Of a stretch of DNA of 64,000 nucleotides, positions 34,604-40,138 are shown piece after piece (the first letter of the stretch is position 1; each line of letters opens with the position of its first letter). A program made the translations under genes and the position numbers. The stretch lies in the IMG/VR virus record IMGVR_UViG_3300031867_004305, positions 117,043 to 181,042 of that record; one strand, written 5' to 3'. The notes under the pieces were generated by a model. That model was not told the origin of the DNA and did not search any database. It saw nothing but the letters and a program-made list of their open reading frames with translations. The stretch is from a virus (lineage: Duplodnaviria > Caudoviricetes).

Positions 34604-35197
34604 GTAGATACCCTATTTAATAAAATGGTTGAACCAAGTGAAGAAGAGCTAACCACTCTGCTTGGACTATCCGAAAAACAGCCCCAAACTTGATGGGATA
34701 CTTTCAAGCCAAGGCCGCGAAATCAGTAATGATTAGCGATATGGAGAAACTCCTAATGTTAAGGGTAGGTGCTTGGTTATCCGCTAACAAAAACTTGGCT
34801 CCTCGCGGCGTCGTAATAGAAGGTGGGCGTTAAAAGCGTGACCTGAATCCAAGTTAGGCGTAGGATGGCTGCCACCGCAAACCTTGGAAATGCCAACAAG
34901 ACGCTTGGTGTCGTTGAAACCTAGAAATAGGATATAAGCGAGGTTCACAGAAAAAGTAGCCCAAAACGACAATGATTCTAATAGATATTTGTAAATATTA
35001 CTTGGAATTATTGTGCTGAACGGTTCGGGTGAAATTTGAGAGTAAGCAATCTCTCCGTTGCTCACCGAAAGGTAGGGTGAAGAAGTCCGGAATTGCTACC
35101 CGTGGCTCAGCCTTCATCTTCAACGTGGTTGAATATGTTAGAAGGATAATACAAGTACGACGAAGGTCGCAACGGTTTTATTAAATAGGGTATTTGC
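34604..35197 (+). ncRNA. Large ncRNA, ROOL-like (~590 nt)
   Basis: Long closing helix ATACCCTATTTAATAAAA/TTTTATTAAATAGGGTAT; size and tRNA-cluster context fit ROOL; family assignment is recollection, not a search. Confidence 0.6.
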
Positions 35198-39685: not shown

Positions 39686-39775
39686 GCGGTATTAGCGTAG
39701 AGGCCGAACGCGGGAGTTTGCTAAACTCTGTCGATCTTCAGTGATCCGAAGGTTCGAATCCTTCATACCGCGCCA
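39686..39775 (+). tRNA. tRNA-Ser(GCU)
   Basis: GGAGT-TTGCTAA-ACTCT; long variable arm; GCCA. Confidence 0.88.
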
Positions 39776-39777
39776 AA

Positions 39778-39934
39778 TGTGGACAGTAGGCTTGGAAGCA
39801 GCCATCTGATAATGAGTCTTTAATTTCTCCATCTGTGCGAAATGTATTATAGGCTACATTTGTTATAATGTCCTATGAGTATGATGTGCGGATGGGCAAT
39901 AGAAATATGAAGTTTGGCGTAATAGCACACCACA
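39778..39934 (+). ncRNA. 23S rRNA L11-binding-domain (H43/H44) mimic
   Basis: GGCTTGGAAGCAGCCATC and GCGTAATAGCACA closed by TGTGG/CCACA. Confidence 0.7.
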
Positions 39935-40063
39935 TAGCTCATCTGCCATGTGTAGAAGGAGCGGAGAAATCGTTCTGCGATTTCGTTAATAGACTTGCCC
40001 ACGCCTCTGATTCAAGCGTACCTTGGGGAGCACGCGGCCACAGCGGTTAAAGTGGCACTATGC

Positions 40064-40138
40064 GCGGGTGTAGTTCAACGGCTCGAATACCTGGCTTCCA
40101 CCCAGGAGATGAGGTTTCGACTACCTCTACTCGCACCA
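40064..40138 (+). tRNA. tRNA-Gly(UCC)
   Basis: CCTGG-CTTCCAC-CCAGG; ACCA. Confidence 0.88.

Follow-up and report, generated by a model that had tools for sequence, protein, structure and literature searches.

The window, a stretch of 64,000 nucleotides that forms the right-hand terminus of the complete 181,042-bp record of an uncultured phage, carries a 159-nt non-coding RNA element (39777–39935, plus strand) which, by sequence and structure comparison, is a self-closed copy of the GTPase-associated centre (GAC) of 23S rRNA, equivalent to E. coli nucleotides 1051–1108. A first-pass annotation had proposed a free-standing mimic of the uL11-binding GAC at this place, and this structural claim is strongly supported by covariation and by the conservation of tertiary contacts. 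The picture of a singleton that came with it is not borne out, the element being one member of a phage family with hundreds of copies.

Architecture of the element

The letters from which the mimic had been proposed are found at 39778–39934, and because the closing stem comprises six base pairs (AUGUGG/CCACAU) the full element extends from 39777 to 39935. The Rfam LSU rRNA model bears out the resemblance of the flanks to 23S H43/H44, aligning 39780–39831 to its own GAC positions (E = 0.0012). A search for the two-part core pattern gives a single match in the 64-kb window and none in 100 dinucleotide shuffles.

All parts of the element lie on the plus strand and are described in E. coli 23S numbering. 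The 5′ strand of the closing stem P1 (AUGUGG, 39777–39782) corresponds to the tip of H42 (about 1050–1055) and pairs with the complementary 3′ strand CCACAU at 39930–39935. It is followed by A1056 (39783) and by the H43 hairpin 1057–1081 (39784–39808), which matches the LSU rRNA model positions and harbors U1060 at 39787, C1072 at 39799 and, at 39794, a guanine instead of the adenine at position 1067. The triloop hairpin 1082–1086 (AUAAU, 39809–39813) is closed by an A-U pair and leads into the segment GAGU (39814–39817), namely G1087, A1088, G1089 and U1090, which makes up the 5′ side of the H44 base and agrees letter for letter with the bacterial LSU consensus GAgu. At the U1090/G1091 junction, inside H44, the rRNA-like sequence is interrupted by an arm of what we call the W-type, a long irregular hairpin which had been put at about 90 nt and measures 95 nt (39818–39912). 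A family-specific UUUG linker without rRNA counterpart (39913–39916) connects the insert to the tip of H44 (39917–39926), which consists of G1091-C1092, a GUAAUA loop with A1095 at 39921, and G1099-C1100. A1101, C1102 pairing with G1087, and A1103 facing A1056 follow at 39927–39929. The residues of the tertiary contacts are thus U39787, A39815, C39799 and the pair C39918-G39925. The pairs 1057-1081, 1058-1080 and 1082-1086 are C-G, A-U and A-U in the window, which are minority variants within the family and fully compatible with the fold.

As had been noted from the letters, the element lies between tRNA genes and is accompanied by no other rRNA. A tRNA-Ser(GCU) gene with encoded CCA, identified by ARAGORN and Rfam (39686–39775, plus strand), ends one nucleotide upstream of the element, and a tRNA-Gly(UCC) gene begins downstream on the same strand (40064–40138). 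Together they belong to a same-strand run of five tRNA genes in the order Gln, Lys, Ser, element, Gly, Gln. Because the tRNA-Ser ends just one nucleotide before it, the 5′ end of the element should be set by tRNA 3′ processing. No convincing promoter or terminator was found between the element and the flanking tRNAs. Neither the window nor the complete phage genome contains further rRNA; in the genome the element occurs once and LSU rRNA gives no match. The element is therefore not embedded in a 23S rRNA gene, its flanks being tRNA genes.

The 128 nt from the element to tRNA-Gly (39936–40063) consist of two blocks, roughly 39936–39990 and 39991–40063, both of which are conserved in the related phages L087, L101 and L022, where an extra tRNA-like gene lies in between. 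The interval has no Rfam match and its predicted fold is not better than that of shuffles; the blocks may be further small RNAs or processing elements.

Occurrence of the element in phage genomes

A distant BLAST search of the element against GenBank phages led to Aeromonas phage 4_4572 and Pseudomonas phage pf16. Each of them carries the matching sequence, with the same split architecture, inside a tRNA array, where it occupies an unannotated gap on the strand of the tRNAs. The IMG/VR collection was scanned with five exact patterns directed at different parts of the core, and at least 271 stretches matched. Complete elements were defined by the 5′ core, the H44 pairs, a closing stem of at least 5 bp and an insert-base stem of at least 3 bp. 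Among the IMG/VR matches listed, this strict rule is satisfied by 144 loci, 123 of them unique, with inserts that range from 26 nt to several hundred nucleotides (median 140 nt). A consensus-like query revealed unannotated copies, with both halves confirmed, in the cultured phages Cronobacter GAP32, Xanthomonas XacN1, Ralstonia RSP15 and Acinetobacter ME3, and matches to the 5′ half in Serratia phage BF, Pectobacterium phage CBB, jumbo phages of Yersinia, Erwinia and Vibrio, and others. The survey thus extends the family beyond IMG/VR to the six cultured phages pf16, 4_4572, GAP32, XacN1, RSP15 and ME3.

In bacterial and archaeal genomes, searched with the family-specific 3′ half, mostly chance matches were obtained; the 5′ half was present in 13 of 120, and these two-half matches lie largely in tRNA-dense contigs resembling phage or prophage. 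The evidence for the family consists of anchored pattern searches together with explicit pair counts. Its signature, which the window element displays in full, comprises the self-closing stem, the junction GAGU-[insert with covarying basal stem]-UUUG-GC, and A1101.

Many elements are slotted between two tRNA genes with a gap of 3–11 nt on each side, and such narrow gaps imply release by tRNA-processing enzymes. Among the 123 unique complete elements a tRNA is found within 20 nt in 48, within 100 nt in 60 and within 500 nt in 81, and in all 81 of these tRNA-neighbouring cases both are on the same strand. In GAP32, RSP15 and ME3 the element occupies unannotated gaps of 290–630 nt flanked by protein genes; in XacN1 (L292, 30–680) its place is immediately downstream of an annotated 2′-5′ RNA ligase gene and not in a tRNA array.

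A phage-encoded binding partner was sought and rejected. The complete genome contains no genes or domains of uL11, uL10, bL12 or RelA/SpoT, and when 2,772 open reading frames within about 5 kb of 221 elements were clustered, no protein family recurred in more than 16 of the 221 loci. Since neither a candidate gene nor a recurrent neighbour is present, the binding partner is most likely a host protein. The most frequent neighbour families are homing endonucleases (HNH in 16 and GIY-YIG in 11 of the 221 loci), TerD and a DUF2828/DUF7788 protein. The latter, about 470 amino acids long and carrying both domains, is encoded no more than 5 kb from the element at 8 of the 221 loci (for example L254:5810–7219); this association is weak and probably reflects the shared tRNA neighbourhood.

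Covariation of the secondary structure

The GAC structure and the insert-base stem, 22 pairs in total, were scored in an alignment of 33 short-insert members. Canonical pairs account for 94.2% of the cells versus 69.2% in shuffles, and both sides of a pair are changed in 191 cells versus 60, double-sided changes being found in 13 pairs. The covariation score is 0.634 compared with 0.145 for shuffles, none of 500 of which scored as high, and in a slid control with the 3′ partners moved by one to three columns it does not exceed 0.17.

Each helix of the four-helix GAC fold (closing helix, H43, 1082–1086 hairpin and H44) is thereby recovered. Across the family the closing stem is 5–8 bp long and covaries freely in sequence; all six pairs of P1 show compensatory changes and 99% of its cells are paired. 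In H43 the pairs 1057-1081 and 1058-1080 covary. The 1082-1086 pair alternates between U-A, C-G and A-U around the invariant U1083, A1084 and A1085, and the positions 1056 and 1103 always combine a purine, rarely a cytosine, with an adenine. The insert-base stem shows compensatory changes as well, its first four pairs being canonical in 97, 95, 85 and 77% with all pair types represented.

Conserved positions and tertiary contacts

The tertiary fold was assessed on elements retrieved with selected parts of the core left free. In sets whose retrieval constrained neither residue, U1060 is present in 99 of 99 and A1088 in 61 of 61 elements; G1087 is likewise found in 61 of 61 where it was not constrained. 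For the triple between position 1072 and the pair 1092-1099, elements were retrieved via the 5′ half alone so that the 3′ half remained free. Elements with a cytosine at 1072 have C-G as this pair in 71 cases and U-A in one case; those with a uridine have U-A in 23, U-G in 8 and C-G in none. An exchange of C/C-G for U/U-A is reportedly also seen in rRNA phylogeny and in the GAC crystal structures of Conn, Gutell and Draper in 1998 and of Conn et al. and Wimberly et al. in 1999, and we take the switch in the phage family to be the same one. The tertiary-contact residues are kept in the homologues, namely U1060, A1088, G1071 and C1072 or the covarying uridine, with both the U1060-A1088 contact and the 1072/(1092-1099) triple retained and with conserved loops at 1066–1073 and 1093–1098.

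Conservation extends to the loops themselves. In 99 elements, retrieved with an anchor that excluded these positions, G1059, U1060, G1062–C1064 and U1066 are invariant. In the H44 loop, unconstrained in detection, G1093, U1094 and A1098 occur in 86 of 86 elements and A1095 in 84 of 86; A1101 is present in 85 of 86, C1102 in 86 of 86 and A1103, also unconstrained, in 86 of 86. The linker reads UUU in 81 of the 86 elements and continues with G in 74. Variation is seen at 1061 (U, A, G or C), 1067, 1068 and 1069, position 1067 being an adenine in 85, a guanine in 13 and a uridine in one of the 99 elements. The family-variable positions 1061, 1067 and 1069 coincide with the set described for rRNA as unconserved and not contributing to the fold, while A1095 is described there as invariant, devoid of tertiary contacts or a structural role, and one that 'contacts cofactors' (PMC6239185).

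The putative uL11-binding surface

[quoted passage not shown] Wherever the first set allows unbiased scoring, its positions are either invariant or change together as partners in a helix; nucleotides 1075–1079 were fixed by the retrieval patterns and so carry no independent information. The insertion point at 1090/1091 lies outside both sets. An isolated GAC of 58–60 nt folds autonomously and binds L11 (PMC6239185, PMC1802607), and since the contact nucleotides are kept in the phage RNA, it is a strong inference from the sequences that it can bind uL11 too. A decoy for the uL10/bL12 stalk, which had been considered alongside, is unlikely because the closing stem, at 5–8 bp and of free sequence, does not copy the uL10 site of H42.

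The inserted arm

The arm is variable among the family members, yet not random, and falls into several classes. The W-type class has 13 members including the window element, and its alignment shows a long hairpin with compensatory stem changes. In the window the arm has a covarying basal stem and a predicted fold with z = −2.5. Its conserved features are a purine-rich internal loop, UGCGAAAUG ... UGAUGU, at 39836–39846 and 39879–39890, and an NAAUR bulge at 39896–39902. An assignment of the two strands UGCGAAAUG / UGAUGU as a K-turn or box C/D was rejected, as they misfit the geometry of a 3-nt bulge with tandem G-A pairs; the loop reads better as a 2×2 purine loop with flanking G-U and A-U pairs. 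A second class, with 24 members including pf16 and 4_4572, ends in a small GNRA-type hairpin followed by GGUAAGG, and a further one is common to GAP32, XacN1, RSP15 and ME3.

In a class of long inserts an AGUAC-GNRA-GGA hairpin sits on a stem inside the insert, which amounts to a copy of the sarcin-ricin loop (SRL). It is found in the IMG/VR loci L040 (3691–4065), L046 (8376–8800) and L112; by our own estimate about 0.06 chance matches to AGUAC-GNRA-GGA are expected in the roughly 15 kb of inserts. Because the hairpin is located within the insert, these members copy both rRNA halves of the factor-binding site. An SRL pattern search of the window arm was negative, and an SRL or bulged-G motif proposed there was rejected, its AGUA not being conserved in the W-type relatives. 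Rfam returned no match on the inserts beyond the LSU GAC, the SRL hairpin of L040 being too small to score.

At the other extreme, L265 (13974–14060) has an insert of only 27 nt and L014 (3711–3772) and L079 (4596–4658) have none, so that these three are essentially the bare self-closed GAC domain. Because some members carry almost no insert, the GAC core is the common denominator of the family.

Proposed mode of action and alternatives

We lean towards a decoy acting off the ribosome, namely a stable RNA, processed together with the tRNAs and possessing the GAC tertiary fold, whose target would be host uL11 and possibly also factors reading the uL11-GAC surface. In this model the element is a stable non-coding RNA gene which would be transcribed with the phage tRNA operon and excised by tRNA-processing enzymes. 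The RNA would adopt the same compact tertiary structure as the 58-nt 23S GAC, closed by its own 6-bp stem, and the variable arm would protrude from helix 44. Free of the ribosome, the RNA would present the uL11-binding surface and the 1067/1095 cleft, and would thereby bind uL11 of the host, and possibly proteins recognising the uL11-GAC complex, serving during infection as a decoy or sponge for the GAC site of the ribosome. A dampening of the Rel-dependent stringent response, which had been suggested as something such an RNA could do, is plausible, weakened RelA activation being one possible benefit for the phage.

As uL11 is very abundant, a uL11 sponge would require copy numbers like those of tRNAs, and it would have to compete with ribosomes. 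Position 1067 is contacted by factors and by thiostrepton, and the guanine found there in the window and in 13 of 99 members counts against the decoy model, as do the conserved features of the variable arm, which a pure uL11 sponge leaves unexplained. The conservation of A1095 and the SRL hairpin of some long members suggest selection on more than uL11 binding. With inserts this varied and an SRL copy in some members, the target is likely broader than uL11 alone and may comprise the whole factor-binding site.

The copying of both halves of that site in L040, L046 and L112, with a near-exact SRL hairpin, would also suit a decoy for enzymes or toxins that attack it, such as ribotoxins of defence systems or competitors, ADP-ribosyltransferases or methyltransferases, the RNA soaking up the attackers much as phage tRNAs replace or shield host tRNAs. 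The residence of the element in tRNA arrays fits this explanation, since phage tRNA arrays are widely read as counter-defence. We nevertheless consider it unlikely, as we know of no defence toxin aimed at H43/H44 and found none, the window copy has no SRL, and the conservation pattern fits the uL11 contacts equally well. Toxins against the RNA of the factor-binding site do exist in the form of SRL-modifying enzymes; a Photorhabdus Rhs effector that ADP-ribosylates the SRL is cited in bioRxiv 10.1101/2024.02.24.581848.

A trap or modulator, in which the RNA, with or without uL11, binds directly to translational GTPases or to RelA and changes how available or active they are, would account for the retention of A1095, a cofactor contact without structural role, in 84 of 86 elements, and for the existence of SRL-bearing members. 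According to a 1997 report by Munishkin and Wool, EF-G binds oligonucleotides that copy the thiostrepton domain and the SRL in isolation. This interpretation is rather doubtful, however, as the affinity of factors for isolated rRNA pieces is weak, trapping of EF-G or EF-Tu would also harm phage translation, and position 1067 varies. The GAR and the SRL are the two parts of the factor-binding centre (PMC2330231).

With inserts from 26 to several hundred nucleotides and conserved W-type, GGUAAGG-type, SRL-type and jumbo-phage-type classes, the GAC fold, perhaps capped by uL11, might instead serve as a nuclease-resistant, self-closing frame for an arm that carries the actual function. We hold this to be improbable: the insert is down to 27 nt in L265 and missing altogether from L014 and L079, core conservation including A1095 far exceeds the needs of a frame, and cargos as different as these would not all need the same one.

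The homing endonuclease genes as commonest neighbours and the abutting tRNAs could raise the suspicion that the element has no mimic function and is either a piece of 23S rDNA captured from a host, possibly interrupted by a mobile insertion, or a signal acting in cis in the processing of the tRNA operon. This is very improbable given that the closing stem is of non-rRNA sequence and covaries, that the UUUG linker and A1101 are common to phages of unrelated hosts, that purifying and compensatory selection acts on hundreds of copies, and that the inserts show no intron signature in Rfam; an intron with its exons was rejected for the covarying non-rRNA stem and the family-wide junction.

Relation to known RNAs

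The phage element resembles the bacterial 23S GAC in its secondary structure, loop sequences, U1060/A1088 contact, 1072/(1092-1099) triple, 1082–1086 triloop and pattern of variable and invariant positions. Unlike the rRNA domain, it lies outside any rRNA, is phage-encoded among tRNA genes, has its own short closing stem, and possesses the 1090/1091 insert, the UUUG linker and an adenine at 1101.

Ribosomal-protein mRNA leaders, such as the autoregulatory sites of L1, L10(L12)4 and S15, mimic rRNA sites too and are thus likewise RNAs that imitate the rRNA site of a ribosomal protein off the ribosome; they are cis-regulatory, cellular and loose, partial mimics. A leader of this kind mimicking the rRNA site of uL11 is not known to us. 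The phage element, in contrast, is a stand-alone, near-exact copy in a tRNA operon with no ribosomal-protein gene nearby, and is not situated in the 5′ UTR of a ribosomal-protein operon. Such leaders are surveyed in PMC3616713.

The phage RNA further resembles synthetic oligoribonucleotides in being an isolated GAC copy, with the SRL also copied in long family members, and differs from them in that those are laboratory constructs and the phage RNAs a natural, evolving gene family. Such 'ribosome-in-pieces' constructs of the thiostrepton domain and the SRL were reportedly used in vitro by Munishkin and Wool in 1997.

ROOL (RF03087) and YrlA-type Y RNAs share the niche in phage tRNA arrays and are probably co-transcribed and processed with the tRNAs in the same way, while they have no sequence or structure similarity to the element and do not copy an rRNA domain. 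A full-length ROOL RNA (307.6 bits) is present in the same tRNA region of the window at 34610–35188.

Rfam 15 has no family for the element and yields only a local LSU rRNA match of 19 bits, below the gathering score of 50. No description of a phage GAC-mimic RNA family was found in the searchable literature. The catalogue of about 10,000 candidate structured RNAs of viruses in PMC10690425 reports that they do not overlap with predicted rRNA, and its main text mentions no rRNA-like class.

As to the wider proposition, we see the balance as even. It holds that large phages of many bacterial phyla encode a natural 'ribosome-in-pieces', a stable replica of the factor-docking site, with the GAC always and the SRL too in some lineages, that captures uL11, GTPase factors, RelA or ribosome-directed toxins. 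If so, these RNAs would constitute a previously unrecognised class of viral RNA decoys against the translation apparatus and the first case in nature of a functional rRNA domain copied as a free-standing RNA. They are widespread in large phages, including the six cultured ones named above, which can be grown on laboratory hosts, pf16 being a phage of Pseudomonas putida. Such RNAs would point to a new viral route of manipulating translation or the stringent response and to a second kind of cargo for phage tRNA arrays.

The family also provides hundreds of natural variants of the GAC, a classic model RNA, together with naturally tolerated insertion points. The cultured phages RSP15 (L293) and ME3 (L294) carry the U1072/U1092-A1099 form and are natural compensatory mutants well suited to binding experiments.
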